From Nitrospinota bacterium (GTDB lineage Bacteria; UBA8248), in contig JAYGFR010000203.1 of assembly GCA_046581755.1 (NCBI GenBank), positions 1-34,271 on the forward strand: 34,271 nucleotides of DNA, given 5' to 3'. Numbering within the stretch: the stretch's first letter is position 1; each line of letters begins with the position of its first letter. The notes beneath the pieces are model-generated. The model saw nothing but the letters and a program-made list of their open reading frames with translations, searched no databases and had not been told where the DNA came from. A program made the position numbers and the translations under genes. Shown piece by piece: positions 10,196 through 26,511 of the stretch.

Positions 10196-11272
10196 TTAAA
10201 GGCCGGAATCCGGGTTCGGCTCGACAACGACCTTGAGCGCCCCGCCGGTGCGGTTCCGAAAGGTTTCCATGGCGGCGGTAAACTCGGTCAGCGGGAACCG
10301 GTGGGTCACGAGCTCGGCCAGCCGGAGCGCTCCGCTCTCGGTGAGCGCGAGGACCTCGGGAAGGCAGTTCGGCGCGGCACGCGAGCCCACGACCTCGATC
10401 TCATCGAGAACGAACCGCCGGAGGGGCAGGGGCGCATCCTCCTGGGTGATCCCGCCCACGACGACGCGCCCGCCCTTTTTGATCATCTCTACGGCCTGGA
10501 CGATGGTCCCGGCCGTTCCTGCGCATTCCAGCACAACGTCGGGCCCGATGCCGCCGGTGGCCTCCTTGACGTATTCCATCACGTCCCGCGCGTTCACGTC
10601 CACGGTCTCGTAGCCGAACTCTTTGGCCTTCTCGAGGCGGCTTCCCCGGCCGGCGACGATGACCCGGCCCGCGCCCAGGGCACTCGCGCACTGGTAGGCA
10701 ATCGAGCCGACCGCGCCGGGGCCGATGACGACCACCGTGTCGCCCGCCTCGATGTTTCCCCGCTTGGCGATGTGGAGGGCGATGCCCGCCGTGTCGAGCA
10801 GGGAGGCGGCCGGCATATCGAAGCTGTCCGGCAAATGGACGAGGGAGCGGACGTTGGCGTTGATGTACTGGGCATAGGCCCCCGGAGCGGTCATGCCGTA
10901 TTGCCGGTGGCCGGCCTCCATGTTCCCGTAATTGAGGCAGAGGTTGTAGCGCCCCTTCATGCAGTTGCGGCAAAGGCCGCAGCCGACGGCGGAGCTTCCG
11001 GCCACCCGGTCGCCGGGCGCGAAGGCCGAGACTCCCGGCCCCACCGCCTCGACCGTCCCCGCCCACTCGTGGCCAATGATGAACGGCCATTCCGGCGGCC
11101 ACATCGGGAAAAATTTTCCGGACATGATGCCGATATCCGTCCCGCAGATGGCGACCGCCCCGACGCGGCAAAGCGCCTCGGCCGGTCCGATTTCGGGAAC
11201 GGGTATATCATTCTGAAACTCGTATTCGTCCGGCCCGAGGAGGACAACCGCCTCCATGGTCTCTCCGGGCAT
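10196..11272 (-). CDS. Zn-dependent medium-chain alcohol/polyol dehydrogenase
   Basis: ICGTD, GHEWAG, CGLCRNC...C structural Zn site and GPGAVG; AGGAGG RBS. Confidence 0.92.
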   Translation of the reverse strand: MPGETMEAVVLLGPDEYEFQNDIPVPEIGPAEALCRVGAVAICGTDIGIMSGKFFPMWPPEWPFIIGHEWAGTVEAVGPGVSAFAPGDRVAGSSAVGCGLCRNCMKGRYNLCLNYGNMEAGHRQYGMTAPGAYAQYINANVRSLVHLPDSFDMPAASLLDTAGIALHIAKRGNIEAGDTVVVIGPGAVGSIAYQCASALGAGRVIVAGRGSRLEKAKEFGYETVDVNARDVMEYVKEATGGIGPDVVLECAGTAGTIVQAVEMIKKGGRVVVGGITQEDAPLPLRRFVLDEIEVVGSRAAPNCLPEVLALTESGALRLAELVTHRFPLTEFTAAMETFRNRTGGALKVVVEPNPDSGL

Positions 11273-11318
11273 TTCGGCCTCCTTCTCTTTCGGGCTCTTT
11301 CGGGCGAAACCCGCCTTC

Positions 11319-12176
11319 CTAAAGCGGTGTCCGCGCCAGAATATCCTCTTCCGTCACGTCGCCCATGTAAACGTAGCCCGTCTCCTCGACGCTTCCCGAG
11401 CCGATGTACATGCCCACCGCCTCGACGGGCTCAGTCTCACTCAGGTTGTGAAGCCAGTGCTCGACCCCCTTGGGGATGTAGTGAAAATGCCCGCCGCGCA
11501 CCTCGACGCGGTCGGGCCCCGCCCCGGCGAGGCCGTGGCCGCTGATGATGTAGTAAATTTCCTCGCAGTTGTCATGACGGTGTTTTTTGTGGACGGTGCC
11601 CGGGAAAAAGCGCGCCCGGAAGAGCGTGGTCGAGCTTCCGTTGTGGGTTCCGATGGGGATTCGGAAGTCGGTGATCGACCAGCCCTTCCCCTCGTCCATT
11701 TTCTCCTGGGGAACGTCGTCCAGATGAACGAGAATGCCCTCGCTGAAGCCCTCGCGCGGCATGGCGAGGTCTTCTTCGGTTACGTCGCCGCGGAACTGAT
11801 AACCCGAATCCTCGACGCTCCCCGCCCCGACGTAGAAGCCGACGACCAGCGCCTCCTCGTCCTTCGTTTCGTTGTGGAAAAAATGCTCCGCGCCCGCCGG
11901 CATGAGGCGGCAGTGCCCGGCCCGGACCTCGGCCCGCTCCGAGCCCTGGCCCACGACGCCGTTTCCGCTCAGGTAGACGGCGATCTCGTCGCAGTTCGTA
12001 TGAAGGTGTTTTTTGTGGGTGGAGCCGGGCCGGAAAATCGAATGAAACACGCAGGTCGAGCTTCCGCACGCCTTCGTGATCGGCAGGCGGAACTCCGAGA
12101 TCGCCCAGCCCTCGCCTTCGTTCATGTTCTCGAGTTTCACATCGTCGATATGGATAAGGGGATATTGAAGTGCCAT
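11319..12176 (-). CDS. Bicupin metalloprotein (paralog B)
   Basis: HKKHLHTNCDE...MPAGAEHFFHN and HKKHRHDNCEE...IPKGVEHWLHN. Confidence 0.88.
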   Translation of the reverse strand: MALQYPLIHIDDVKLENMNEGEGWAISEFRLPITKACGSSTCVFHSIFRPGSTHKKHLHTNCDEIAVYLSGNGVVGQGSERAEVRAGHCRLMPAGAEHFFHNETKDEEALVVGFYVGAGSVEDSGYQFRGDVTEEDLAMPREGFSEGILVHLDDVPQEKMDEGKGWSITDFRIPIGTHNGSSTTLFRARFFPGTVHKKHRHDNCEEIYYIISGHGLAGAGPDRVEVRGGHFHYIPKGVEHWLHNLSETEPVEAVGMYIGSGSVEETGYVYMGDVTEEDILARTPL

Positions 12177-12205
12177 CGCGAATTTCCTCTTATAAAAGAT
12201 GCGCT

Positions 12206-13078
12206 TTACAGCTTGCCCGTCCTCGGGGCGTTGATGTCTTCCTCCGTCACGGGGCCGTTATAGGCGAAGCCGCTCTCGTCCAGCCCGCCGACCCCGATGT
12301 ACCAGCCGGGAGCGACGAGGTCTTCGATATCGCTCAGGTTCGCAAGCCAATGCTCACACCCGGCGGGAATGTAGTGAACGTCCCCCTCGACCAGTTCGCC
12401 CCGGTCGGCGCCCACCCCCGCCAGCCCGCGTCCTTTGAGGATATAGCAGATCTCCTCGCAGCGATCGTGGCGGTGCTTCATGTGGACGGTATGAGGGCCG
12501 AAATAGCCCAGCATCCAGCATGAACCCGCACCGTGGCTCCGGTTCAGGGGCTCGCAAAAATAATCCTGCGTCCAGCCCTCATCCTTGGACACCTTCACCA
12601 TGGGAACGGCGTCCTGGTGAACCAGGGGATATTGGAGCCGGCCGGTATCGAGCGTGCGCGAGGCGTTCATGTCCTCCTCAGTCACCCCGCCCAGGTGAAC
12701 ACAGCCCGTGGCCCCGAGGCTGGGGGCGCGGTCGTATAGGCCGATGATAATGAGGGGATCGTTCCGGCTCAGGTTGACGAGCCAGTGCTCCACCCCCTTG
12801 GGGATTAGATGGTAGTGGCCTGGATGGACCTCCACCCGGTCCGGGCCCGCTCCGGCGAGGCCGTGCCCGCTGAGGATGTAATACTGCTCATCGCAGTTAT
12901 CGAGGCGGTGCCGATGGTGGACAGCGTTCGGCGCTAGGATCTGGTGGAACATGGTGGACGAGCAGCCCTGTTTTTCGTCGAGAACGACCCGGAACTCGCC
13001 CTCCGGCCAGCCCTTGCTCTCGTCCAACTTCTCCGGAGTCAGGCCGCCGATGCGAATGTATGGATGCTGAAATGCCAT
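12206..13078 (-). CDS. Bicupin metalloprotein (paralog A)
   Basis: HHRHRLDNCDE...IPKGVEHWLVN and HMKHRHDRCEE...IPAGCEHWLAN. Confidence 0.88.
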   Translation of the reverse strand: MAFQHPYIRIGGLTPEKLDESKGWPEGEFRVVLDEKQGCSSTMFHQILAPNAVHHRHRLDNCDEQYYILSGHGLAGAGPDRVEVHPGHYHLIPKGVEHWLVNLSRNDPLIIIGLYDRAPSLGATGCVHLGGVTEEDMNASRTLDTGRLQYPLVHQDAVPMVKVSKDEGWTQDYFCEPLNRSHGAGSCWMLGYFGPHTVHMKHRHDRCEEICYILKGRGLAGVGADRGELVEGDVHYIPAGCEHWLANLSDIEDLVAPGWYIGVGGLDESGFAYNGPVTEEDINAPRTGKL

Positions 13079-13090
13079 GGAAAATCCCCG

Positions 13091-13896
13091 CTAGTTGGAC
13101 GGCGTATCCTTCTGCTTCAGCGCTACGACTTTCTGAATCCACAGCGCGGCATCGGAGGCGGCGGCATCGGATGCCTCCCGGTGTCCCGAATCCACTTCGA
13201 TGAATTTATTCATCGGATGATCGGGAACCCAGGAAAAAGCGCCCCCATTCTTGAACCGCTCGTTCTTGGCAACCGCCATGAACAACGGGATGCCTTTTTT
13301 TATTTTCATCGCATTCAGTGACATCACCGCAGGCCCTTCGGGATCGAAGTAACTTACATAAATTCGAGCCGTCACGAATATATCCGCCGTTGTCCCCTGG
13401 TTTTTTCGGGAAACGTTCCGATTTCATCGCCTTTTCCCTCTTTCATCATGGCCTTCGCTCTTTTGACATCGGGCCAGAAGTTAAAATTTTCCGGCACATG
13501 ACCGGGAGCGATGCCGAGCACTCCACTTATACCGCCATGATATGCCGCGTACCCGATGGCCGCGTTGGCGCCGATGCTATGTCCTCCGACAAAGATATAT
13601 CTGGCGCCCGAATCGCGCAGGGACCGCACCGCTTTCTTAATCTCCAACAAGGCGTCCTGATAGGTCGCATCATATCCTCTCGACCCGGACCACGGCATTT
13701 CGGGCGACACGACTTGGTACCCCTCCAAAATCAATGCCCCAAGCAATTCGGTGATATTTCTGCCGGGATTTCTGCCCTTGCCGTGCATAAACACGACACC
13801 CACCTTCGACGCATCGATTTTGGGGCTGGAAGGGCCTCCCGCCGATATGGCTTTGCAACCGGCCAGGAACACAAAAATAAACAAACCGGCAACCAT
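13091..13896 (-). pseudogene. Alpha/beta-hydrolase lipoprotein split by a frameshift in an A6 run (13401-13406)
   Basis: The upstream part has lipobox FLAGC, VFMHGKG and nucleophile motif GHSIG. Adding one A gives FPEKNQGTTADIFVTARIYVSYFDPEGPAVM...DSGH, joining ORFs 13372..13953 and 13091..13375. Start codon uncertain. Confidence 0.75.
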
Positions 13897-14045
13897 TTCA
13901 TGCGAACCATAAGCCCTTCGCTTTCCATGTCCGCCAAGAATACACGCAAGCAAATCCGCCGCGGTGAATGGCGTTCAAACCCACCATCGCTCCTATTTAT
14001 AAAGGAGCGCCCGGAGACTTGTTTTCTATTTCGACGATTTCCTTT

Positions 14046-15077
14046 TTACTTCTCGCCGATCTGAATGACCCCGCGCAGGGTTCCGCCGTCGCCGCCGCTC
14101 TCGATGAACTCGAAGCTCTGCTGGATGTCGTCGAGCGGGAAATGATGGGTGACGATCGGTTCGAGATCGATCCGGCCCGATGCCACGAGAGCGATGGCGC
14201 GGCCGAAATCCTCGGCGAGGCCCGCGCGCGAGCCGATGACGGCGATGTCCTTGAAGTAGTAGGCCTGGGCGGGTATCCCTTCCACCGTAGATGGCCCGAT
14301 GCCGAACTGGAGAATCGTCCCGCCCGGACGGACCATCTCGTAGGCCTGGATCATGGTCTGGTTCGTGCCCGCCGTCTCGATCACCACGTCCGCTCCGAGC
14401 CCGCCGGTGAGTTCCTTGACCCGCGCGACCGAATCGGTATTGCCCGCCGGGACAATCTCGTCCGCCCCCATCTTCCGGGCCATCTCGAGCTTCCACTTGC
14501 TACGGGTGATGGCGATGACCCGGGCCGCGCCCGATACCTTTGCGAGCTGGGTGTGGAGCAGCCCGCTCGATCCCTGCCCGATGACAGCGACCGAACCGCC
14601 CGGGATATAGGGCGCCTTGCGCTGACTGTAGACCACCGTGTAGAGCCCGACGAAATTCGTCGCCGCGGCGAAGCCCACGTTGTCCGGAATCTTGTAGGCC
14701 TCGGTCTCCTTGACGCCGATGAGCTCGGCGAAGGTGCCGGGCACCTCTCGGCCGCGCAGGCCGCCGCTGAGGCAAAGATTCGTCAGCCCCCGCAGGCAGT
14801 AATGGCACACCCCGCAGGCCGTCACCGGGTTGAGCACCACACGGTCGCCCTCTTTGAGGCGCGTGACCCCTTCGCCCAGCGCGGCGACGACTCCTGTGCA
14901 CTCATGGCCGGGTATCACCGGAATATTCGCGGGCATTTTTCCGGCCCAGATGGAAACGTCCGTCCCGCAGATGGCCGAGGCCGCCACCTCGACCAGAACC
15001 TCGCCCGGCGCAACCTCCGGGTCCGGCTGCCCCCCCACCGTCATTTTACGGGGCGCTTCGAGCATAGCCGCTTTCAT
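14046..15077 (-). CDS. Zn-dependent medium-chain alcohol/polyol dehydrogenase
   Basis: ICGTD, PGHECTG, CGVCHYC...C and GQGSSG motifs. Confidence 0.92.
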   Translation of the reverse strand: MKAAMLEAPRKMTVGGQPDPEVAPGEVLVEVAASAICGTDVSIWAGKMPANIPVIPGHECTGVVAALGEGVTRLKEGDRVVLNPVTACGVCHYCLRGLTNLCLSGGLRGREVPGTFAELIGVKETEAYKIPDNVGFAAATNFVGLYTVVYSQRKAPYIPGGSVAVIGQGSSGLLHTQLAKVSGAARVIAITRSKWKLEMARKMGADEIVPAGNTDSVARVKELTGGLGADVVIETAGTNQTMIQAYEMVRPGGTILQFGIGPSTVEGIPAQAYYFKDIAVIGSRAGLAEDFGRAIALVASGRIDLEPIVTHHFPLDDIQQSFEFIESGGDGGTLRGVIQIGEK

Positions 15078-15197
15078 GAATCACTCCCGGTTTCATAGGT
15101 TCGATGGTCATGCAGGGGGGAGATAATACCGCCAATCGGGCCAAGACCCAAGGCGAGGAACGGCCGCATGACCCAGAAATAAAAAGCCGCCATCCCG

Positions 15198-15233
15198 ACA
15201 AAAACGGGGGCGGCCCGCGATGGACCGCCCCCG
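15198..15233 (-). terminator. Rho-independent terminator after the DRE-TIM gene
   Basis: Minus strand reads CGGGGGCGG-tccatcgcggg-CCGCCCCCG-TTTTTGT. Confidence 0.8.
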
Positions 15234-15260
15234 CTGAATTGGGCCGAATCGCCTGCCGCC

Positions 15261-16481
15261 TTACTTCTCCCCGGCGAGCTCCTTGAACTCATCCAGGGTG
15301 AGGAGGCGGCCCACTTCGAACGCCTTTTCCTTCACGTCGGTGAGGAGGGCCATCATCTCCTCCTGGGTGGCCTTGATGTTCAGCTCATCCAGGAACCAGG
15401 CGATCGAGTCGATGCCGCTGCCCTTGCCGATGACGGGTTTGGGCTCGGTCTGGCCGACGAGGCCCGCGCGGTAGGGCACGAGCTCGGTCGGGAAGTCCTT
15501 GCCGGCGTTCTTGAGCCAGCTCACGATGATGCCGCTCTCGATGTCGTAGAGTTTTTCGCCCACGATGCAGCGGTTGGGCGGCACGGCCACGTCCGCCAGG
15601 CCGGTGACGAGACGCGAGGTCTCGACGAATTTTTCGGTCTTGAGGCCCATGTCCACGTCGTACATGGTCTTCATGGCGAGTGCGAGCTCTTCATAGGCGC
15701 AGTTTCCGGCGCGCTCGCCGAGTCCGGTGACCGAGGTCTGGGCCACCTGGCAGCCCTCCGCCATCGCCATCAGGGTATTGGCGACGCCCATCCCGAAATC
15801 GTCGTGGAAATGGGGCTCGAATGGGGTGTCCGGGAAGACCTCGCGCATCTTCTTGATCAGGTGGGGCACCGTGTGGGGCGCGAGGCCGCCGAAGGTGTCC
15901 ACGATGGCGAGGGAGTCCATGTGCCCCTCGGTGGCGACCTTCTTGAGCATGTCGAGCACCCACTCGAGCGGGGCGCGCGAAAAGTCGATCGGGAAGAAGC
16001 AGACGTAAAGCCCGTTTTCCTTGGCGTACTGGGTCGCCTTGATCGATGTTTCGATGGCCTTGTTGAGGTCCCACTTGTAGGCGCGCTCGATGATGTGGGT
16101 CGAGCTGGGAACCTCCATGACGATCCCCTTGACGCCGGTATCGACCGATCGCTTTACGTCATCGACCATGCAGCGCGCGAAGCTGAAAACCTCGGTATCG
16201 GTGCCTTCGAGACGCTTGACGATCTCCTTGATGGCCTCCTCGTCCTGCTTTGAAACGACGGGCATGCCCGCTTCGATACGATGGATCCCCACCTCGGCCA
16301 GGGCCTCGGCGATGCGGATTTTGTCGTCCTTGGTGAAGAGGACGCCGGTCTGCTGCTCGCCGTCGCGTAGGGTGACGTCGTGTAGCTTGGGATTGGGATC
16401 GAAGTGGACCTGGTCCCGGACTTCCTTGTCGAAGTTCCAGGGGCTGGTGAACCACATATCGGTGTTCCAGGGCTCGCTCAT
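15261..16481 (-). CDS. DRE-TIM metallolyase (LeuA/homocitrate synthase/Re-citrate synthase-like), no LeuA regulatory domain
   Basis: HDVTLRDGEQ, IEAGMP, HFHDDFG, GLGERAGN and ESGI motifs. ATG 16481 with AAGGAG RBS; 406 aa. Confidence 0.88.
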   Translation of the reverse strand: MSEPWNTDMWFTSPWNFDKEVRDQVHFDPNPKLHDVTLRDGEQQTGVLFTKDDKIRIAEALAEVGIHRIEAGMPVVSKQDEEAIKEIVKRLEGTDTEVFSFARCMVDDVKRSVDTGVKGIVMEVPSSTHIIERAYKWDLNKAIETSIKATQYAKENGLYVCFFPIDFSRAPLEWVLDMLKKVATEGHMDSLAIVDTFGGLAPHTVPHLIKKMREVFPDTPFEPHFHDDFGMGVANTLMAMAEGCQVAQTSVTGLGERAGNCAYEELALAMKTMYDVDMGLKTEKFVETSRLVTGLADVAVPPNRCIVGEKLYDIESGIIVSWLKNAGKDFPTELVPYRAGLVGQTEPKPVIGKGSGIDSIAWFLDELNIKATQEEMMALLTDVKEKAFEVGRLLTLDEFKELAGEK

Positions 16482-16569
16482 TGCCCGATTCTCCTTTCGA
16501 AAAAGATATAAAGCCCCAGCGGCGCGAAGGCCCGAAGCCTCCCCGCCACCGGGGAAGGTATGACCCGGT

Positions 16570-17910
16570 TCACTCGTAACGCCCTTCGCCGCGCGACTTG
16601 TGCGAGAAGTCGAAGTAGGGCGAATCCTTGATGCAATCATCGTAGTGCTGCATGCCGGTGAAGATGATCGGACCGTCGGGGCCGACGAGGACATTCTCCT
16701 CGAGGCGAACGGTCTGCGGCAGACCCGGATGGCCGGCGAACGTCTCGATAGCGAAATACATGTTCTCTTTAATCTCGACCGGGTAGTCGAGGCTGTAGGC
16801 CCGGCTGATCCACATCCCCTCGTAGAGGTCGAGGCCGATGGAATGGGCGAACTGCTGGAGCGTCACCGTGCCGTACTTGTCGTCGGCATACACCGGGAAC
16901 TTCGAGGCGACGTCCTGGGTCGTTTTTCCCGGCTTGAGCTCGGCGAGGCCGGCGTACATCGAATCGTAGACCTCCCGGTAGAGCGCCTTTTCTTTCTTCG
17001 TCCAGTCGCCGCCGCACTTGAAACAGCGCACGTAATCGACGAAGTAGCCGCCGGGGCCGATGGCGTTGATGTCCACGATGATGAGGTCGCCGTCGCGGAT
17101 CATCTTGTCGGTGTGCCAGCGCCGGTAGGGGCTCGTATTTCCGCCCGAAGCCACGATGATGTCGTAGACGAAGTCGAAGCCCTCTTCATAGAGCAGGTTG
17201 TTCACCCAGGCCGTGAGGTCGCACTCGCGGATGCCGGGCTTGAGCCATTCGTGGCGGATTTTCCACATGCAGGTATCGCCGATTGTGGAGCTGATCTTGA
17301 GGCACTCGATCTCCTCGGGGGTCTTGATGACACGCGCTTCGCTCATGGCCGGCCAGGCATTGACCAGGTTCACGCCCTTTTCGGTGAACGCGCTGTATGC
17401 CTGGAAGTCCATGATGTCGATGCCGATGCGGCCGTCCAGAGCGACGCCGCCCTCTTTCAGGACCTCGATGACCGAATCGACCATGCGGTTGACCATCATC
17501 TGCTCGGCCGTCTCGGACCACTTCCAAGTGATCGCCGGGCGGATATTGCCCTCGAGCCAGGGCGCGTCGATGCGGGCGCACTCGTAGTCCGAGCCCGCCG
17601 TCTCGAAGAGCACGGGCGTCTTCGCGCCGCGGCAGAGGACGGCGTAGCGGATGAAGATGTTGTTCTTCCAGTTGCCCTGGTAGACCGAGCAGGTGTAGCG
17701 GATATTCTCGCCCTTGAACATGATGATGGCGTCCATGTCATGCTTTTCCATCATGTCCTTGGCGCGCTGGAGCCGGTCCTCGCGCATCCTGTTGAAATCC
17801 ACCCGGCGCTGCCAGTCGCTGCCCGTCTGGCTGAATACGCGGCGGGGAGACTGATAATGTTCCCGCTGCAAGAAATCCAGCGGCATTCCCTGTTTGCTGA
17901 GGTCCACCAT
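16570..17910 (-). CDS. M24 (aminopeptidase P/creatinase fold) metalloenzyme, DddP-like architecture
   Basis: ENIRY, ARVIKTPEEI, SGGNTSP, IVDIN...VDYVR, HSIG, IETF and RLEEN motifs; GGAGGAG RBS. Confidence 0.87.
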   Translation of the reverse strand: MVDLSKQGMPLDFLQREHYQSPRRVFSQTGSDWQRRVDFNRMREDRLQRAKDMMEKHDMDAIIMFKGENIRYTCSVYQGNWKNNIFIRYAVLCRGAKTPVLFETAGSDYECARIDAPWLEGNIRPAITWKWSETAEQMMVNRMVDSVIEVLKEGGVALDGRIGIDIMDFQAYSAFTEKGVNLVNAWPAMSEARVIKTPEEIECLKISSTIGDTCMWKIRHEWLKPGIRECDLTAWVNNLLYEEGFDFVYDIIVASGGNTSPYRRWHTDKMIRDGDLIIVDINAIGPGGYFVDYVRCFKCGGDWTKKEKALYREVYDSMYAGLAELKPGKTTQDVASKFPVYADDKYGTVTLQQFAHSIGLDLYEGMWISRAYSLDYPVEIKENMYFAIETFAGHPGLPQTVRLEENVLVGPDGPIIFTGMQHYDDCIKDSPYFDFSHKSRGEGRYE

Positions 17911-17997
17911 GGTGAACTCCTCCCGATTAGGATGTTGCGTCTCGCGCGAGGCGCGAAATATTCGCTCCTCACAATTCCGGATAAAATTTCTTCCGAT

Positions 17998-18789
17998 TTA
18001 TGCCGATTTCCTGGCCTTCTCTCCCGTTTTCGCCCGGCGGGAGGTCTTGCCCCCCCCGTTTCGGGAAGTCCCCCGGGCACCGGCGTCCAGGAGCGCATTC
18101 CGAAGATGCTCTCCCTCGGCGTCCATGTGCTCGCGCATCGCTCGGCGGGCGGCCTCGGCGTCCGCCGCATCGACAGCGGCGAGAAGGGCTTCGTGCTTGT
18201 CGAGGGCTTCCTCGGATTGACCCGGGATGCCGATGATGCGCCGCTGGCTTTTCTCGATGAGGCCCGCGATGGCCTCCCAGAGCGTCAGCAGAACGGTGTT
18301 CCCCGCCGCCTCGGCCAGCTTGCGGTGAAATCCGATCCCCGAGCGGACAAACGCCTCCGAAGAGGTTTTGAGAAGCCTCATCTCACCGGTCAGAGCGCGC
18401 AGCTCCCGGATGTCCTTCCCGCTCCGCCGGCAGGCGGCGAGGGACGCTATTTGCTCCTCCAGGCCCCGGCGCACCTCCCAGAGTTCGAGGAGGGTGTCGT
18501 CCCGGACGTCGAGGAGGAAAGAAAGGCTTTCGCGGATGGAAGCGAGATAGGGATCGACGCCGATGTTGCGGAGAAAAGCGCCCTGGCCGCTTCGAACCTC
18601 GATGAGCCCTGTGCTGTCGAGGGTGCGAAGCGCCTCGCGGACCGACGCCCGGCCGATGCCGAGGATGGCGGCCAGTTCGCGCTCGGAGGGAAGCCGGTCG
18701 CCCGGACAAAGCTCCTTCGTCCGGATAAGGTGCTCAATTTGGGCGACGACATCCTCGTAGAGGCGCGTACGTTTGACCGGGCGGAGCAA
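17998..18789 (-). CDS. GntR family regulator, FadR subfamily
   Basis: PGDRLPSERELA...RASVREAL wHTH and FCD domain (FHRKLAEAAGN...H). TTG start with AGGAGG RBS. Confidence 0.93.
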   Translation of the reverse strand: MLRPVKRTRLYEDVVAQIEHLIRTKELCPGDRLPSERELAAILGIGRASVREALRTLDSTGLIEVRSGQGAFLRNIGVDPYLASIRESLSFLLDVRDDTLLELWEVRRGLEEQIASLAACRRSGKDIRELRALTGEMRLLKTSSEAFVRSGIGFHRKLAEAAGNTVLLTLWEAIAGLIEKSQRRIIGIPGQSEEALDKHEALLAAVDAADAEAARRAMREHMDAEGEHLRNALLDAGARGTSRNGGGKTSRRAKTGEKARKSA

Positions 18790-19105: not shown

Positions 19106-19955
19106 ATGCCAATGCCGAGCCTCTCAGCCCACCTTTTCGCGCAGGAACCGCTGACTTTCGGCCACTTCCAGGCGGTGGCCGAGGCCGGATTCGGCCAGGT
19201 AGAACTCTGGGCCATGAAGCCGAACCTGGACTGCGGAGATCCTGCCGCAATGTCCCGGCTGAAGAGGTGGCTGGCGGATCTTTCCCTTGAGGCCCCGAGC
19301 TTCCACGCACCCTTTTACACCCACCTGGACAGGGCCCGGACCGGAAATTGGCTCTCCCTCGCCCACTCCGAGCCCGAGCAGCGGCTCGAGGCCATCAACG
19401 AGATCCAGGCCTCCCTCATCGCCATGGCGAATCTGGATGCGCGAATTGCGGTGCTCCATCCCTCGGCCCCGGGTTCGGCCGGCGAAGGCGACACCGCCGA
19501 CGGATTCATGCAGAGCATCGAGCGGCTGATTCCCATCGCCGAGCACCTGAACCTGACCTTGGCGGTCGAGAACATCCCCGCACCCCTGGGAGGGGCGGAG
19601 CAGATCGGAGCGCTCATCGAGCGAATCGGCCATCCGTGCGTGAGGGCCTGCCTCGATTCGGGACACGCCTTCCTCACCGAAGGAGAGGCCGCCCCCCGAA
19701 GCCTTCCGGCGGCTTGCGCCCCTGGCCGCCGCCACCCACTTGCACGACAACGACGGGGAGAGCGACGGGCATTTGATCCCGGGTGAGGGCCAGGTTCCCT
19801 TCCCGGCGCTCTGGCGGGCGCTCGATGAGACCGGCTACGAGGGTCCGCTCACGTTCGAGTTGCGCCCCCGCGAGAACAGCGATTACGCCTTCCATCTGAA
19901 CGAGTTGGCACAGGCCGCGCCCCTGGCGGCCGCCGGTCTGGGAAATTCCTCATGA
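19106..19955 (+). pseudogene. Sugar phosphate isomerase/epimerase (xylose isomerase-like/AP-endonuclease-2 TIM barrel) with one extra C in a C6 run (19692-19697)
   Basis: FHAPF, LAVEN and CLDSGHA lie in one frame. Removing one C gives AAPEAFRRLAPLAAATHLHDNDGESDGHLIPGEG...LTFE, restoring the remaining metal-binding motifs. Confidence 0.85.
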
Positions 19956-20989
19956 CGGATCGCCTCCCCAGCGAAGCGGCCGCGTGCCTGAACCGCCTGG
20001 CGGAAGATCGGTTCGGGGTCCCCGCCGCGGAAATCTCTCCGCTCGCGGGAGACGCTTCGGATCGCACCTATGTCCGTCTTTATCATCCGGGCGGCGGCAC
20101 GCCCTCGTCCGTCGGGATGATTCTCGCCGCGCCCTTCGGCGACGGGGAGCTTCCCTTCGTGAACGTCCAAGCGCATTTCAGCGCCATCGGCGTTACCGTC
20201 CCCGAGATTTACGCCGCCGACCCCCGGGCCGGGGTTTTGCTTTTAGAGGACGGCGGCAGCCGCTCCCTCGAGGATGTGTGGAGCGCCGGAGGGTGGGAGG
20301 CCGCCCGGGCCTATTACGAGGAATCGATCGGAATCATCGCCTGCCTCCAAGCATCTCCCCGCAGCCGGGAGGGTGCCATCGCGCTCGATTACGGGTTCGA
20401 CACCGCGCTTTTTATGCGAGAGCTTCACATGACCCGCCGCTATGCCTTCGAGGAGCTGCTGGGCATGTCCGCGCCCGAGGCGGATTTCGCCACCCCGTTC
20501 GCCGCGCTGGCGGCGGAGCTCTGCGCCATGCCCTACGCTCTCACCCACCGCGACTTTCACAGCCGCAACCTCATGACCGGCGGCCCGGGAAAAGATTCCG
20601 GGCGGCTCCTCGTCCTCGATTTTCAGGACGCCCGGATGGGACCCCTAACCTACGACCTCGCCTCCCTGGTCTACGACAGCTATGTTTCCCTCCCGGAGGA
20701 GAACCGGCGGGCGCTGATCGAAAAATACTGGCAAGATTCGGACGCCCGGAACCGCTTTGCGAACAGGACGGCCTTTCGCCGCGCTCTGGCGCTGACGGCG
20801 CTCCAGCGGAATCTCAAGGCCATCGGGACGTTCGCCTATCAAAAAACGGGGCGGGGAAACCCGCGCTACATCCGTCATATTCCATCGGCGGCGGCTCATG
20901 CCCGCCGCCATTTGGCCGCGCTGTCCGGCCTGGAGAATTTCGCAGCAAGGCTAGAACCCTACATTTGCGCTATGGAGGAGGTAAATTAG
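19952..20989 (+). CDS. amgK: AmgK-like anomeric MurNAc/GlcNAc kinase (APH/phosphotransferase fold)
   Basis: LAGDASDRTYVR, LLLED, HRDFHSRNLM, LDFQDA, YDLASL and LQRNLKAIGTF motifs. Confidence 0.8.
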   Translation: MTDRLPSEAAACLNRLAEDRFGVPAAEISPLAGDASDRTYVRLYHPGGGTPSSVGMILAAPFGDGELPFVNVQAHFSAIGVTVPEIYAADPRAGVLLLEDGGSRSLEDVWSAGGWEAARAYYEESIGIIACLQASPRSREGAIALDYGFDTALFMRELHMTRRYAFEELLGMSAPEADFATPFAALAAELCAMPYALTHRDFHSRNLMTGGPGKDSGRLLVLDFQDARMGPLTYDLASLVYDSYVSLPEENRRALIEKYWQDSDARNRFANRTAFRRALALTALQRNLKAIGTFAYQKTGRGNPRYIRHIPSAAAHARRHLAALSGLENFAARLEPYICAMEEVN

Positions 20990-21000
20990 GAGATGGCTCA

Positions 21001-21585
21001 TTGAACGGATGGCCCTCTTTTCTATTCGATAAGATTGAACTCGGCCTGTACGATTTTATGTATCCGGGAAAAATTCCTCCTAACGAGGCTCGTATAGAGG
21101 CCGCCTACAGCATGCTGACCCCGGACTCGCCCGATCACAGCCTGATCCTGGAGGTGCAAGGGGAGCGTCTGTGCCGGGCTCGCTTCAAGCGGGGGGAGAC
21201 GTGCTTCATTGCGGTCCACGAGGGCAGCGTGGTCAGCTACATCTGGGGCTCGCGGGGCAAGGTGGGCGTCGATGAAATCTCGATGGCCGTCCAGACCGCG
21301 CCAAAAGAGATGTATCTCTACGATGCGTTCACGCTGGAGCCCTGGCGGGGAAACAACCTATACCCCGCCGTCCTCCAGCGGGCACTGGAATTCGGCAGGG
21401 ACCTGGGCTTGACGCGATCGACGATTTTCGTTGAGGCGCGCAACACCCCCTCCATCCGGGGCGTCACGAAGGGGGGGTTCACGCTGTTTCAGACGCTTCT
21501 TCTGAAAACTTTGCTCGGATTCGGCAAATCCAAGCTCTTGCCCCATCTCGAGGGTCACGCCCCGGCCGAATTCGTCCCCCTCTAG
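21001..21585 (+). CDS. GNAT family N-acetyltransferase
   Basis: YLYDAFTLEPWRGNNLY (motif A) and NTPSIRGVTKGGF (motif B). TTG 21001 lies 8 nt after AGGAG. This is the real 3' part of ORF 19984..21585. Confidence 0.82.
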   Translation: MNGWPSFLFDKIELGLYDFMYPGKIPPNEARIEAAYSMLTPDSPDHSLILEVQGERLCRARFKRGETCFIAVHEGSVVSYIWGSRGKVGVDEISMAVQTAPKEMYLYDAFTLEPWRGNNLYPAVLQRALEFGRDLGLTRSTIFVEARNTPSIRGVTKGGFTLFQTLLLKTLLGFGKSKLLPHLEGHAPAEFVPL

Positions 21586-21593
21586 CCCAGGGT

Positions 21594-21623
21594 TTGACGT
21601 CCCGGGCGGGGGACTTTTAATAT
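21594..21623 (+). promoter_or_regulatory. Possible internal promoter (TTGACG...TAATAT) overlapping a weak GTCCC/GGGAC-TTTT hairpin
   Basis: TTGACG at 21594-21599 and TAATAT at 21618-21623, in the only sizeable gap of the cluster. Confidence 0.4.
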
Positions 21624-21683
21624 CTTTGGATTTTCCGGCGGCACCGGGAATGCCGCCATCTTGCGCTTTTTCAAGGAGGGAAA

Positions 21684-22745
21684 ATGCCCCCCTCATGCTC
21701 CGCGCCTACTCCGTGCTACACGGTGGCGTCCGCATCCTACGGCGACGAGCCGCTTCGGGTGTGCGTATTCTCCAGCCCCGAAGACATCCTCCGGCTCGCG
21801 CCCGAGTGGCGCGCGCTCATGGAGGCGAGCAGCCACGCCCACCCCTTCTACGACCCCGCCTGGCACCATACCTGGTGGAAGCATCTGGGCTCGGGCGAGG
21901 TTCACATCTGCACGGTGGGCCCCGAGACCGGGCCGCCCATCGCCATCGCCCCCCTCACTCTCCGCGAGGACGGTGTAATGCGCTTCATCGGCGGCGAGGA
22001 CCTGACGGACTACCTCGATATCCTCGCCCGCGACGGAGCCCACGCCGAGGCCTGGCGGGCGCTGCTCGAATACCTGAACAGCCCGGAGGCCCCGCCGTGG
22101 AAAGAGTTGATCCTCCATGGCGTTCCCGCCGGATCGCCAACAGCCGAATTTTTCCGCGCCCCGGCGGGAGGCGCCACCGTAGAGCCGGAGGAGGTCTGCC
22201 CGGTGATTCCGCTTCCGGATTCCTGGGAGGCGTACACCGGTATGCTCGGCCAGCGCGAGGAGCGCGAAATGCGCCGAAAAATCCGCAAGGCGCAGATGGA
22301 GCCGGGCCTCGAAATTCACCGCACGCTCAACGAAAAAGACCTGGAAAACGACCTGGACGAATTTTTCCGCCTCCATGAATTGAGCCAGCCCCAAAAGGCA
22401 GAGTTTTGGAACTGCCCGCGCCGCGCCTTTTTCAGGGAGATGGCCAAGGAGATGCTCGCTCTTGGCTGGCTGGATCTGACCATCATGCGCGTAGACGGGC
22501 ATCCGGTCGCCGCGAATTTCGCTCTCGACTACGGAGACCGGATCTACCTGTACAACTCGGGCTTCGACCCCGGGGAGCGGGAGTTGAGCGCGGGCCTGGT
22601 TCTCCTTGCGCAAGACATCGAGCATGCCATCCAGGCCGGGCGGACCTCGTTCGACATGCTCCGGGGGAATGAACCCTACAAGTACCGCTACGCGGCCCAG
22701 GATGAACCCATCGTGCGGATTCGCCTCGCCCGGAAAGCCTCATGA
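21684..22745 (+). CDS. CelD/BcsL-like double-GNAT (Acetyltransf_6, FemAB-related fold) protein
   Basis: HPFYDPAWHHTWW, GGEDLTDYLD, LPDSWEAY, YLYNSGFDP and FDMLRGNEPYKYR motifs; AAGGAGG RBS. Confidence 0.87.
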   Translation: MPPSCSAPTPCYTVASASYGDEPLRVCVFSSPEDILRLAPEWRALMEASSHAHPFYDPAWHHTWWKHLGSGEVHICTVGPETGPPIAIAPLTLREDGVMRFIGGEDLTDYLDILARDGAHAEAWRALLEYLNSPEAPPWKELILHGVPAGSPTAEFFRAPAGGATVEPEEVCPVIPLPDSWEAYTGMLGQREEREMRRKIRKAQMEPGLEIHRTLNEKDLENDLDEFFRLHELSQPQKAEFWNCPRRAFFREMAKEMLALGWLDLTIMRVDGHPVAANFALDYGDRIYLYNSGFDPGERELSAGLVLLAQDIEHAIQAGRTSFDMLRGNEPYKYRYAAQDEPIVRIRLARKAS

Positions 22746-24055
22746 CCGCTCCCTCCCGGCTCCGCGCCGCGCTGCTCTCGATGCACACCGACCCGCTGGG
22801 ATCGTTGGGCGGGGATGTCTCGGGGGGCATGAACGTCTACATCCGGGAGACGGCGCGGGTCCTGCCCGCGCTCGGGGTGGAGGCGGACATATTCACACGG
22901 GCCTCGGATGACGGCTCTCCCTCCATCGCCAATCTGGCCCCTGGCGTGCGCCTCATCCGGATTCCGGCCGGCCCGAAAAATCCCCTCGAAAAAAACGAGC
23001 AGGCCTGCTTCACAGGCGAATTCGCCTCGGGCATCCACGCCTTCGCCGAATCCCAGGAGGGCGGGTACGACATCGTATCTTCCCATTACTGGCTATCCGC
23101 CCTGGCGGGGCAAGAACTCGCCGATGGGTGGGGTACGCCGCTCATCCACCGGTTTCACACCCTCGCGGCCCGGAAGAACGAATCGCTGCCGGTGGAGGCG
23201 GACCGGGAGACAGGAGATCGCGCTGCGGCCGAAATCCGGATTGCCCAACGGGCGGACGCTCTTATCGCCTCGACGGGCGCGGAGGCCGCCGATCTGGCGC
23301 ACACCCTGGGGGCGGACAAATCGAAGGTCCATATCATCCCCTGCGGCGTGGACCCGGGGAACTTCTCGCCCCTCCCTCGGACAGAGGCACGGGCAGCCCT
23401 CGGGTGGAGCGATGAGGAGCGGATTCTCCTCAACATCGGGAGGATCGAACCCGTAAAAGGGCTCGACAGGCTGGTCCGGGCAATCGCCACCATGAAAAAG
23501 AGCCGGCCCGGCTTCTCCATTGCCGCCGTTCATGTAGGGGGCGAGGTTCGCGCCAGCGCCCGGGCGGAAAATACCGGTTACCGGCCTGAAGATTTTTCCT
23601 CCTCCGTCCAGCGGGAAGAAGTCGCTCGAATCCTCGAAATCGCGGCCGAAGCGGGGGCCTCCGAAAACATCCGCTTCGAGGGGCCAAAATCCCAGGACGA
23701 CCTCCGCGTCTATTACTCCGCCGCGGATGCGCTGACCATCTCATCGCGCTACGAGACGTTCAGCCTCGTTGCACTCGAGGCGGCGGCCTGTGGCCTGCCT
23801 GCGGTGGCCTTTCGCACTGGGGGCCTTGCGGAAGCCATCGAGGCGGACCGGACCGGTCTGCTCGTCCCCGAGGGCGACATCGCAGCGTATGCCGCTGCGA
23901 CGCTGAAAATCACCGCCTCGCCAGACCTTCGAGATCGGCTGGGGACGCAGGCCCGGAGGCGGGCGCGTGCGTTTTCCTGGACGGAGACCGCATCGAAGGA
24001 AGCCGCCGTGTGGAAAAATCTGCTTCGCCGGAGCGTTCCCGCAGTTCCGGCCTGA
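22742..24055 (+). CDS. GT4 glycosyltransferase, MshA-like
   Basis: SMHTDPL...GGDVSGGMNVY, SHYWLS, FHTLA..KN, GRIEPVKG and ETFSLVALEA (Ex7E) motifs; ATGA overlap with the upstream gene. Confidence 0.88.
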   Translation: MTAPSRLRAALLSMHTDPLGSLGGDVSGGMNVYIRETARVLPALGVEADIFTRASDDGSPSIANLAPGVRLIRIPAGPKNPLEKNEQACFTGEFASGIHAFAESQEGGYDIVSSHYWLSALAGQELADGWGTPLIHRFHTLAARKNESLPVEADRETGDRAAAEIRIAQRADALIASTGAEAADLAHTLGADKSKVHIIPCGVDPGNFSPLPRTEARAALGWSDEERILLNIGRIEPVKGLDRLVRAIATMKKSRPGFSIAAVHVGGEVRASARAENTGYRPEDFSSSVQREEVARILEIAAEAGASENIRFEGPKSQDDLRVYYSAADALTISSRYETFSLVALEAAACGLPAVAFRTGGLAEAIEADRTGLLVPEGDIAAYAAATLKITASPDLRDRLGTQARRRARAFSWTETASKEAAVWKNLLRRSVPAVPA

Positions 24056-24073
24056 GAAAATGGAGAGAGCATT

Positions 24074-24760
24074 TTGATTCGATCCGAATTTAAAAACGTC
24101 CTCGTTTTCATGGCCCACCACGACGATGCCGAACTCGGCGCCGGCGGGAGCATCGCCCGCTGGGTGGAGAACGGCGCGGTCGTCCGCACCGTCATCTGCA
24201 CAAATGGAGACAAGGGAACGAAAAATAATATCCCACCCTACAAGCTCACCGAAACCCGCGAGAAAGAACAACTCGCTGCCTCCAAGGCGCTGGGCGTGAA
24301 AGAAACCCTGTTTTTGCGCCACCGGGACGGGGAACTTGAGGATACGCGGGCGTTCCGGAATCAGCTGGCCTTCATCATCCGCCATTTCAAGCCCGACACC
24401 TTGGTCGCGCACGACCCCTGGCTGCCCCATTACTCGCATCCCGATCATCAGGCGGTGGGCCACGCCGCGTTCAAGGGCGTCATTTACGCGAGAGACCATC
24501 ACTTTCTCCCCGAGCTGACCTACGCCGGAATCGAGGCGCATCATACGAATACGCTCATCTACACCCGATCCACCGAGCCGAACTATTTCATCGATATTTC
24601 CGGGACCATCCAGAAAAAAATCAGGGCCATCAAAGCCCATAAAAGCCAGATTCACAATCCGCGCTCAACCGAGAAGCGGGTCCGCATCCGCGCCGTAGAG
24701 GCCGGCCGCCTCGCCGGCCTCCCCATGGCCGAAACTTTCACCATCAAGCGGATGCGCTAG
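24074..24760 (+). CDS. PIG-L/LmbE family N-acetylglucosaminyl deacetylase (MshB/BshB-like)
   Basis: AHHDD (variant of AHPDD), TNGDKG, REKE, HPDH and AHKSQ motifs; TTG start with GGAG. Confidence 0.88.
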   Translation: MIRSEFKNVLVFMAHHDDAELGAGGSIARWVENGAVVRTVICTNGDKGTKNNIPPYKLTETREKEQLAASKALGVKETLFLRHRDGELEDTRAFRNQLAFIIRHFKPDTLVAHDPWLPHYSHPDHQAVGHAAFKGVIYARDHHFLPELTYAGIEAHHTNTLIYTRSTEPNYFIDISGTIQKKIRAIKAHKSQIHNPRSTEKRVRIRAVEAGRLAGLPMAETFTIKRMR

Positions 24761-24785
24761 ACCCACGCCGGAAGTGGGGGCCGGA

Positions 24786-25928
24786 ATGCCGTATTCCGAA
24801 TGGGCGCCGGAGGACCGGGCCGGCGCGCACATCATGGCCGGCTTCGAGGGGAACTCTCCGCCGCCGCCGCTGCTCGATCGAATCCGCAAGGGCCGGGTGG
24901 GCTGCGTGGTTCTTTTCACGCGCAACATCGAAAGCAGCGGGCAAACGCTCGAACTCACCCACTCCCTCCAGTGCGCCGCCGCCGAATCCCCCTACGCCGG
25001 GCCGCTGCTGATCGCCATCGACCAGGAGGGCGGCCGCGTGAGCCGGCTATCGGAGGATTTCACGCGCTTTCCCGCCGCCCGCGTATTCGGGCGGATCGGG
25101 GATCCGGAGCTCGTTTCGCGGTGCGCGCGCGCGTGTGCGGCCGAGCTCCGCGCCTCGGGCATCAACGCGAACTTCGCACCCGTCCTCGACATTCTGACCA
25201 ACCCGGACTGCGAGGTGATCGGCGACCGGGCCTATGGCGATGACGCGGAGCTCGTTTCCGCGATGGGCGCCGCCGCGATCCAGGGCCTCCAGGCGGGCGG
25301 GGTGGCCGCCTGGGCAAAGCATTTTCCGGGCATCGGGGACATGGCGCCCGACCCGCACGAAACGCTCCCTTCCTCCGGCCTTTCCCTCGGCGCCCTACGG
25401 GGGCGCGAACTCAAGCCCTTCCGCGCGGCCATGGACCCTCGAACGGGCGTGGCCGGCGTCATGGCGGCTCATGCCCTCTACGAGCAAATCGATCCCGCCC
25501 GCCCTGCGAGCCAATCGCCGTGTATCATGGAAGGATTGTTGCGGGACGAACTCGGCTACGGCGGAGTGGCCATCACGGACGACCTCGACATGGGCGCCAT
25601 CGATGAGCCCGCCGAGGGGGCGCTTTTGAGCCTGAGAGCGGGAGCGGACATCGCGCTCATCTGCCATTCGGAGGCGGCCCAGGAGCGGGCGCATGGAGAA
25701 ATTGTGCGCGCGATCCGCTACAAGGACATTCCGCCGGACGCCGAGGAACGCTCTCTCGGGCGGATCGGCAGCCTGAAGGCACGCTACGCCGGCCCCGGAC
25801 GCCCGTTTCCCGGGCCGGGGGGCACCGGAGTTCTCCAAGAGGAGAGAAAAAAAATCGTGGGATGTCCCGCCCACCGGGCGCTTCTGGATGAGGTCATGCG
25901 CCGGGCGGGAAATGAAGAGCGTTCGTGA
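24786..25928 (+). CDS. nagZ: Beta-N-acetylhexosaminidase, GH3
   Basis: LFTRNI, IAIDQEGGRVSR, NFAPVLD, KHFPGIG-x4-DPH and ITDDLDMGA motifs. Start is 24774 (GTG) or 24786 (ATG). Confidence 0.88.
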   Translation: MPYSEWAPEDRAGAHIMAGFEGNSPPPPLLDRIRKGRVGCVVLFTRNIESSGQTLELTHSLQCAAAESPYAGPLLIAIDQEGGRVSRLSEDFTRFPAARVFGRIGDPELVSRCARACAAELRASGINANFAPVLDILTNPDCEVIGDRAYGDDAELVSAMGAAAIQGLQAGGVAAWAKHFPGIGDMAPDPHETLPSSGLSLGALRGRELKPFRAAMDPRTGVAGVMAAHALYEQIDPARPASQSPCIMEGLLRDELGYGGVAITDDLDMGAIDEPAEGALLSLRAGADIALICHSEAAQERAHGEIVRAIRYKDIPPDAEERSLGRIGSLKARYAGPGRPFPGPGGTGVLQEERKKIVGCPAHRALLDEVMRRAGNEERS

Positions 25929-26127: not shown

Positions 26128-26511
26128 TTGGCGAATATCCTCGTTGCCGACAAAGATGAAACCATGCGGGAGCTGTTGGACGTCTCCCTGAGGCGGACCA
26201 ACCACGACGTCAAAATGGCCGACAACGGGGAAAAAACGCTCGACATGATCCGGGAGGAATCTTTCGACCTCGTCATTATCGACTATTCCCTGTCGGCCCT
26301 GGAAATTCTCCAGCGCCTCCGGGAAAACGACGACGAAATCCCTCATTTCATGATCTTGAGCGCAAAGAGCACCCCCGATTCCATCAGGGAATGCGTCGAG
26401 GCCGGGGCGAAGGATTACGTGGTGAAACCGTTCAACCTGCTGGTCCTGATCAAGCGGATCGAACTTCTTCTGCAGAAAGCCCAAAAAGGATTGTCCGGAA
26501 CCCAACCCTGA
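26128..26511 (+). CDS. Single-domain response regulator, atypical receiver
   Basis: ILVADKDE, DLVIIDY, MILSA and AGAKDYVVKPF motifs; lacks the usual MPxxxG loop after the phospho-acceptor Asp. Confidence 0.82.
   Translation: MANILVADKDETMRELLDVSLRRTNHDVKMADNGEKTLDMIREESFDLVIIDYSLSALEILQRLRENDDEIPHFMILSAKSTPDSIRECVEAGAKDYVVKPFNLLVLIKRIELLLQKAQKGLSGTQP

Follow-up and report, generated by a model that had tools for sequence, protein, structure and literature searches.

The window analysed here, a stretch of 34,271 nucleotides (nt) from a Nitrospinota bacterium (assembly GCA_046581755.1, contig JAYGFR010000203.1; contig C391 in our numbering), belongs to a 4.2 Mb genome that is 96.5% complete with 3% contamination, and is also present in marine and seawater metagenomes. 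Between positions 19106 and 25928 it carries seven co-oriented genes on the + strand encoding, in this order, a TIM barrel, an APH-family kinase, a single GNAT, a double GNAT, a family 4 glycosyltransferase (GT4), a PIG-L deacetylase and NagZ, with the positions and families given in a preliminary description of this DNA. ATGA overlaps join the TIM barrel gene to the kinase gene and, as had also been described, the double GNAT gene to the GT4 gene, and the remaining intergenic gaps measure 11, 98, 18 and 25 nt. This work deals with the double GNAT, the GT4 and the PIG-L protein, a trio that we discuss as a candidate pathway to a mycothiol-type thiol, and with its relation to the genes around it.

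Within the phylum, 48 of 51 genomes had the double GNAT and 49 the GT4, and double GNAT, GT4 and PIG-L were adjacent and in this order in 46; three further genomes showed the order in part, where their contigs end (G010, G041, G042), and it was not seen in two, G011 (67% complete) and G001. Twenty loci from the phylum, six of them class-level, were fetched for comparison. All seven genes occurred in the same order in 12, spanning family and order, and two loci were cut short or partial (G037, G009). Four of the class-level loci held the kinase, the small GNAT and the trio, and two the trio only, with NagZ and the TIM barrel missing from all six. The small GNAT adjoined the double GNAT in 17 of the 20 loci, G005 and G006 being cases in which it was not beside the trio.

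Outside the phylum, a GTDB scan with a profile of distant homologs gave 580 confirmed loci from 10 of 64 collection parts, of which the best 80 were compared (78 from Chloroflexota, one from Entotheonellaceae and one from Nitrospiraceae). An MshA-like GT4 accompanied the double GNAT in 64 of these 80 loci, a PIG-L in 11 and the small GNAT in one, and the kinase, NagZ or TIM barrel in none. Because the outside loci carry the GT4 but not the kinase, NagZ or TIM barrel, the conserved core is the double GNAT plus the GT4, often with the PIG-L, and the salvage genes are a local addition. The grouping of the trio in the preliminary description is mirrored by its conservation within the phylum. As a separate observation, an unannotated protein family of about 118 aa recurs near the double GNAT in 37 of the 80 outside loci (e.g. 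L059:8095-8448, - strand).

Fold and family of the core enzymes

The double GNAT (21684..22745, +; Acetyltransf_6) had no match in a sequence search of the PDB. Its AlphaFold (AF2) model, with a predicted local distance difference test score of 95, is closest in fold to FemABX, as expected from the FemAB relation first proposed for it: against FemX the comparison gave Z 22.6 and a root-mean-square deviation (rmsd) of 3.7 over 296 aligned residues (Foldseek E 2.4e-13). FemA (Z 22.2), Sbb17 in complex with the amino sugar streptothrisamine (20.4) and L-PGS (18.9) followed, all four matches having an rmsd of 3.4-3.9. The nine best fold matches were aminoacyl-tRNA transferases or one uncharacterised relative (rmsd 3.4-4.2), and other tandem GNATs trailed at Z 14.1-16.7 and rmsd 5.6-7.1, with MshD at 14.2. 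Identity to the aminoacyl-tRNA-dependent GNAT-fold transferases is only 9-16%.

Two conserved elements bear on the mode of action. The first is the motif G-N329-E-x-Y332-K333, in which K333 is invariant and which in the form G-x-E-x-Y-K was present in 52 of 53 and in 70 of 72 aligned homologs. The spacing N329-x-x-Y332-K333 equals that of N325, F328 and K329 in DhpH-C, residues described as required there in the available part of PMC12945691, and it is this spacing only that suggests an equivalence of K333 to the catalytic lysines FemX K305 and DhpH-C K329. The second is a basic helix (190-204) at the start of domain 2, which matches the tRNA-binding helix described as positively charged in FemX (PMC12945691, available part). 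R198 and K199 are invariant, and K191, R193 and R201 occur in at least 90% of 53 rows; the protein studied here has Q rather than K at 190 and R at the 191-201 positions. The same partial source describes Orf11 as a Gly-tRNA-dependent enzyme acting on streptothrisamine. From model and motifs, the double GNAT is a predicted aminoacyl-tRNA-dependent amide ligase.

The GT4 (22742..24055, +) scored best on the MshA model TIGR03449, with 330.8 bits (under the cut-off of 462.5), 230 bits ahead of the next family at 100.2, and its best PDB match was MshA of C. glutamicum (E 1.5e-66). It is not BshA, as it reached 80.5 bits on that model against a cut-off of 273.7, and envelope GT4 models gave at most 93 bits (GlcNAc-PG synthase, 74.6). 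Equivalents of H9, K78, Y110, T134, R154, R231, K236, E316 and E324 are kept, residues that we take to bind inositol phosphate and UDP-N-acetylglucosamine (UDP-GlcNAc) as in MshA. In phylogenetic analysis actinobacterial MshA nested with related GT4s (98 support), and the clade of the GT4 from this locus attached through a weakly resolved backbone. Its designation as MshA-like thus stands as to best family and closest structure, and is qualified by the score below the cut-off and by a clade of its own on a weak backbone. The enzyme is a predicted UDP-GlcNAc:inositol-phosphate transferase.

The third core protein (24074..24760, +) is a PIG-L/LmbE zinc de-N-acetylase (PF02585, E 1.2e-30) with HxDD and HPDH motifs, predicted to free the amine of a glucosamine. 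Its best NCBIfam model was BshB1 (107.7 bits, cut-off 182.5), with 43.3 bits on MshB (cut-off 224.35), and its closest PDB match was an archaeal diacetylchitobiose deacetylase (E 7e-38, versus E 1e-6 for MshB). Elsewhere in the genome, a PIG-L paralog on contig C25 resembles Mca and MshB, with 202.9 and 190.4 bits, both under the cut-off. A second paralog (G000:C94:1445-2122), about 36% identical to the operon PIG-L, is conserved in most genomes of the phylum.

Cysteine ligases and thiol-pathway genes across genomes

No MshC/BshC-like ligase had been noted at the locus, and profile searches extended this to the genome: the sole match to the MshC model TIGR03447 was CysRS, PF10079 (BshC) had no match, two families of GshA were not found and the lone match to a GshB model was weak and partial. 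Exactly one CysRS-like gene was present in 50 of the 51 phylum genomes and a second copy in none, which argues that MshC is absent across the phylum. These searches and counts argue against a canonical MshC or BshC elsewhere in the genome, and on the same searches glutathione synthesis was rejected. Inositol-3-phosphate synthase (Ino1), also sought here, was found in two copies over the Pfam cut-off (439 and 441 bits on TIGR03450, under 638). The two similar Ino1 genes (G000:C292, C344; L299, L300) lie near contig starts and could reflect either a genuine duplication or the 3% contamination.

Homologs of mycothiol-using proteins were also present. A protein resembling mycothiol-dependent formaldehyde dehydrogenase (MscR) scored 481.6 bits (cut-off 512.9) against 278.1 on the glutathione-dependent model, and such genes were found in 33 of the 51 phylum genomes, none over the cut-off. 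Four TIGR03083 proteins were above cut-off; since the parent Pfam family also occurs in bacillithiol producers, examined as controls, these proteins point to a thiol and not to which one. Within the operon, which was the scope of the MshD search, neither GNAT matched TIGR03448.

To follow the ligases more widely, 121 Chloroflexota genomes were searched for the double GNAT (45 genomes, E 1e-60), the MshA model (88, E 1e-70), the MshC model (67, E 1e-100) and the cysS model. Three MshC-model matches were full-length CysRSs and were taken out (G063, G096, G114), and G080, an unpublished genome, was excluded from the counts, with tallies given as of 121 including it. Among 87 GT4-positive genomes, 33 had the double GNAT only, 48 an MshC-like gene only, five both and one neither; the corresponding numbers for 33 GT4-negative genomes were 7, 10, 0 and 16. 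Fisher p-values (1e-17 for the ligase split and 0.01 in the comparison with co-occurring genes) ignore kinship and were set aside as evidence because the genomes are kin. No double GNAT lay within 4 kb in any of 40 GT4 loci taken from 49 genomes without a double-GNAT match, and in two of these loci the same PIG-L family was directly downstream. On the GT4 tree the ligase types interleave, with at least seven label changes among 71 sampled single-type rows, and actinobacterial MshA falls inside a clade (support 98) that contains GT4s of either type.

MshC is described as a tRNA-independent paralogue of CysRS and compared with CysRS minus its anticodon-binding domain in the available part of PMC5370406. 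Forty of the 63 MshC-like genes were fetched and examined. All 40 fall short of the length that an anticodon domain would add; in the 39 that have KMSKS, 91-159 residues follow this motif, versus 193-232 in CysRS and 124-126 in MshC; 39 of 40 have TPYD, as MshC does, and not TVYD; and all 40 fell with two actinobacterial MshCs, split from seven CysRSs, in a quick tree (Shimodaira-Hasegawa-like approximate likelihood ratio 99). The appropriate name for these proteins is "MshC-like", as none passes the MshC cut-off and cysS is the better-scoring model for four of the eight scanned.

Co-occurring genes were unequally informative. Mycothiol-dependent formaldehyde dehydrogenase was over cut-off in five of 121 Chloroflexota, four of them with the double GNAT only (G051, G071, G091, G100), and all 14 strong matches were in GT4-positive genomes, with none in the 33 GT4-negative ones. 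Ino1, which also serves lipids, was uninformative as a test, 108 of 120 genomes having it, and MshD was set aside as a test for its rarity.

Three side observations concern these families. A short second CysRS paralog with TPYD occurs in 63 of 120 sampled Chloroflexota (e.g. L188:2979-4181 in G072 and L192:820-2028 in G126); being under the MshC cut-off and often over that of cysS, such paralogs are probably annotated as CysRS, and they suggest unrecognised MshC-like ligases in about half of Chloroflexota and mycothiol-type synthesis that has gone unrecognised. Additional full-length CysRSs lie within open frames of about 740-920 codons (G051:C1:2327327-2328703, G111:C1:113614-115038, G129:C82:11106-12530 and about ten others), which suggests fusion to another domain. 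Finally, three of the five genomes with both ligases have two MshA-like genes (G062, G095 and G104; L230/L231, L243/L244 and L248/L249). Second GT4 copies in three rows of the "both" and "neither" classes have F, A and P where MshA has Y110, T134 and S317, as in outgroup GT4s, and may therefore be a different enzyme.

A candidate mycothiol-type pathway and its alternatives

On sequence comparison and structural modelling we favour, with modest confidence, a reading in which the double GNAT, the MshA-like GT4 and the PIG-L would build a mycothiol-type thiol, the FemX-fold enzyme, a predicted user of Cys-tRNA, displacing MshC. It builds on gene content, order, conservation, distribution and predicted fold, and we infer each of its substrates and products. 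Ino1, encoded elsewhere in the genome, would make inositol phosphate, to which the GT4 would add GlcNAc from UDP-GlcNAc to give GlcNAc-inositol phosphate; a phosphatase and the PIG-L would then yield glucosaminyl-inositol (GlcN-inositol). The double GNAT would move cysteine from the 3' end of a charged tRNA to the sugar amine, giving Cys-GlcN-inositol, after which the small GNAT, or some other activity, might acetylate the cysteine amine. Ordinary wall recycling is the likely function of NagZ and the AmgK-like kinase, which would have joined the operon in one lineage and may top up UDP-GlcNAc without being required.

The genomic evidence is good that a Fem-fold enzyme displaces MshC, with cysteinyl donor and thiol product as predictions, and the trio represents a real, widely conserved and apparently undescribed variant of a mycothiol-type pathway. 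The preliminary description had proposed that a conjugate of GlcNAc is deacetylated and re-acylated by a substitute for MshC. The substitute is supported, being FemX-like and distributed as a replacement for MshC, and the open list of products and donors narrows towards a mycothiol-type thiol and a tRNA-type donor, whereas an obligatory coupling to salvage and acetylation by the small GNAT found no support. We regard as evenly balanced the broader proposition that bacteria far removed from Actinomycetota (this phylum, roughly one third of Chloroflexota, and some Tectimicrobiota and Nitrospirota) make mycothiol or its des-acetyl form through a third kind of cysteine ligase (Fem-fold, using Cys-tRNA and swapped with MshC several times) that would tie the redox buffer directly to the translation pool.

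Several observations weigh against this pathway. No pathway gene passes a mycothiol cut-off: neither MshA nor Ino1 does so in this genome, and none of the 121 Chloroflexota has an MshC-like protein over 485.1 bits. Judged by its sequence, the operon PIG-L is not an MshB orthologue; most of the conserved GT4 residues are common to outgroup GT4s, and the GT4 deviates at two positions, with V for D20 and ETFS for ESFG. No feature of the double GNAT sequence singles out cysteine as the residue that it transfers. In Chloroflexota the MshC-like proteins are putative ligases, half of the eight scanned being closer to cysS and their tree including no full-length CysRS from Chloroflexota, and five genomes hold both ligases. 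Three of the four dehydrogenase-bearing genomes with the double GNAT only (G071, G091, G100) are close kin on the GT4 tree. MshD was over cut-off in only four of 120 Chloroflexota, all of MshC type and none of double-GNAT type, so the end product may lack the acetyl group or receive it from another enzyme. Lastly, six independent pairs on well-supported branches of the GT4 tree, which is not a species tree, gave on average 3.6 changes in the same direction (loss of the MshC-like gene with gain of the double GNAT), none in the opposite and 2.4 without difference (sign test, p 0.125). Because only these six pairs are phylogenetically independent, the raw 33/48/5/1 table overstates the case; the displacement pattern is consistent and, the test being underpowered, statistically not established.

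The donor residue is where the first alternative enters. It keeps the scaffold and has Gly, Ala, Ser or another residue moved from tRNA onto GlcN-inositol, or onto GlcN on another phosphorylated polyol, to give a non-thiol solute or storage glycoside. Fem-type enzymes draw on Gly-, Ala-, Ser- or Leu-tRNA according to the available part of PMC12945691, and the locus and its surroundings showed no cysteine-specific feature; a profile built from only seven CysRS tails detected no separately encoded CysRS anticodon domain in this genome or the 220 scanned loci. It would also fit that five genomes retain both ligases and that three of these have two MshA-like genes. We nevertheless consider this alternative unlikely, as it leaves unexplained the absence of an MshC-like gene from 33 of 38 GT4-positive double-GNAT genomes, the mycothiol-dependent dehydrogenase in genomes with the double GNAT only, and the lack of glutathione and BshC genes here.

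A second alternative makes all seven genes one dedicated pathway, with NagZ and the kinase returning GlcNAc to the conjugate, or with the acceptor prepared by the kinase and TIM barrel. The shared order of the seven genes in 12 of 20 loci over family and order speaks for it, as does the upstream position of the kinase and small GNAT in four of the six class-level loci. NagZ (24786..25928, +), a family GH3 beta-N-acetylhexosaminidase, passes its equivalog cut-off (NF003740, 219.7 versus 207 bits). The kinase (19952..20989, +; PF01636; PDB 3csv, E 4.5e-29) scored 97.8 bits on the AmgK model NF045759 (cut-off 550) and 77.4 on a second (cut-off 500), so that of its earlier designation as AmgK-like the resemblance remains, far under the family cut-off; by its sequence it is likely to be an anomeric kinase for N-acetylmuramic acid and GlcNAc in wall recycling. 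Both genes are the only ones of their kind in the genome and AnmK is encoded elsewhere (328 bits), which argues for an ordinary recycling role. MurU was not identified in the genome (best score 121.7 bits, cut-off 250; all MurU-like matches on other contigs, none beside the kinase), so that on these data the recycling route itself has a gap. Moreover, NagZ is beta-specific and the product of MshA alpha-linked. With kinase, NagZ or TIM barrel in none of the 80 outside loci, and NagZ and TIM barrel gone from all class-level loci, salvage coupling was rejected as part of the core, contrary to the coupling first proposed, and the seven-gene pathway is improbable. Since the core occurs without the salvage genes, their link to the trio is lineage-restricted and probably incidental, or may be supportive through the supply of UDP-GlcNAc. 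In Caulobacter, enzymes of this sort recycle wall sugars (PMC13046382, available part).

A third alternative retains a cysteinyl thiol and gives the double GNAT a thioester donor (acyl-CoA or an aminoacyl-carrier), or makes it an MshD-like acetyltransferase beside an unrecognised enzyme that ligates cysteine. Tandem GNATs including MshD do appear in the fold list, the family carries the label "acetyltransferase", MshD is rare in Chloroflexota of either type, and cysteine 172 is kept in 45 of 53 homologs (about 85%). It is quite improbable even so, given that the nine top folds are aminoacyl-tRNA transferases or an uncharacterised relative, at lower rmsd than the tandem GNATs, and that the distribution of the double GNAT complements MshC and not MshD.

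Very improbable is a modification of the envelope, with GlcNAc added to phosphatidylinositol or another lipid or polymer, deacetylated and aminoacylated much as MprF would do it, the wall-recycling genes being part of the unit. In its favour, 12 of 20 own-phylum loci have both NagZ and the AmgK-like kinase in the operon, MprF/L-PGS is among the fold matches, Ino1 is near-universal in Chloroflexota and one paper, in its available part, associates a BioF2-like term with exopolysaccharide clusters, but the GT4 lies far nearer MshA than the envelope GT4 models and groups with MshA, the neighbour clusters (as read from sequence starts, not annotation) contain no recurrent flippase, polymerase or export gene, and complementarity with a soluble MshC-like ligase would go unexplained.

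Returning to the mycothiol-type pathway, comparison with known systems indicates that it would operate like mycothiol synthesis without belonging to it by the defining genes, since MshC is absent and MshA and MshB score under their cut-offs, and that it is not bacillithiol synthesis. With mycothiol biosynthesis of Actinomycetota (Ino1, MshA, MshA2, MshB, MshC, MshD) it shares an MshA-family GT4, a PIG-L deacetylase, Ino1 and homologs of mycothiol users (MscR-like, TIGR03083, Mca-like). It differs in having a FemX-fold double GNAT coupled to the GT4 where MshC was not found, a PIG-L not orthologous to MshB, no MshD match in the operon and biosynthetic scores under the equivalog cut-offs. FemX/FemA, DhpH-C, Orf11/Sbb17/Sba18 and the soluble domain of MprF have in common with the double GNAT the fold, the basic helix opening domain 2 and N-x-x-aromatic-K; they differ in sequence, the predicted acceptor GlcN-inositol and donor Cys-tRNA are not reported for the class in the available parts of the sources, and the predicted role lies in primary redox metabolism. 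Bacillithiol synthesis (BshA, BshB1/2, BshC) likewise runs from a GT4 through a PIG-L to a cysteine addition without MshC, and the PIG-L scored best on BshB1, but the GT4 is far from BshA and the genome yielded no BshC. Peptidoglycan sugar recycling (NagZ, AnmK, MupP, AmgK, MurU) is matched by NagZ, the AmgK-like kinase and the distant AnmK, and not by the kinase scores, the co-location with a biosynthetic trio or any adjoining murU.

If correct, the proposal would name the redox buffer of this phylum and of Chloroflexota, assign a function for the first time within one branch of the large "CelD/BcsL acetyltransferase" family, add tRNA-dependent joining of cysteine to a sugar beside MshC and BshC, and define a way of making a protective thiol, not described before, in several phyla that have received little study. 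A 2009 amidoligase survey by Iyer and colleagues reportedly may anticipate part of the finding. The available part of the survey PMC6282198 limits complete mycothiol genes to Actinobacteria, so that no small thiol is known for this phylum or for Chloroflexota. MshC and Fem-type ligases are discussed in PMC2922099 and PMC9437257, whose available parts do not describe this pairing, and no prior description of a Fem-type ligase in a mycothiol-type pathway was found in the open-licence literature of PMC and bioRxiv, subscription papers being outside that scope.

Other genes and features of the window

The small GNAT (21001..21585, +; PF00583, E 8e-7) is a single-domain protein of 194 aa, a length shared by its homologs, with a TTG start after AGGAG. 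It belongs to no NCBIfam family, gave only weak GNAT matches in a PDB sequence search and was placed among unnamed GNAT clusters in the Atlas. It is a candidate N-acetyltransferase; the final acetylation step first ascribed to it found no backing, since the protein does not match MshD and two genomes lack its gene next to the trio.

The TIM barrel gene (19106..19955, +; AP_endonuc_2, xylose-isomerase-like, PF01261, E 2.6e-23), whose product had no match in a PDB sequence search, is peripheral to the core and is split into two frames by one surplus base at 19692. Because this base is missing from all three covering runs (of four) and the gene is a single open frame in relatives, the frameshift is an assembly error, and a pseudogene was rejected. 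RNA contigs of one run covered six short pieces, which is evidence neither of transcription nor of a single transcript.

Upstream of the operon and divergent from it, positions 10199-18789 (-) hold a separate, catabolic-looking cluster with genes for a GntR/FCD regulator, an M24 peptidase/creatinase-like protein, an HMGL-like enzyme, two zinc dehydrogenases, two bicupins and an alpha/beta hydrolase. Downstream of nagZ, a stand-alone response-regulator receiver is encoded at 26128-26511, and is found in the same position in five of 20 related loci.

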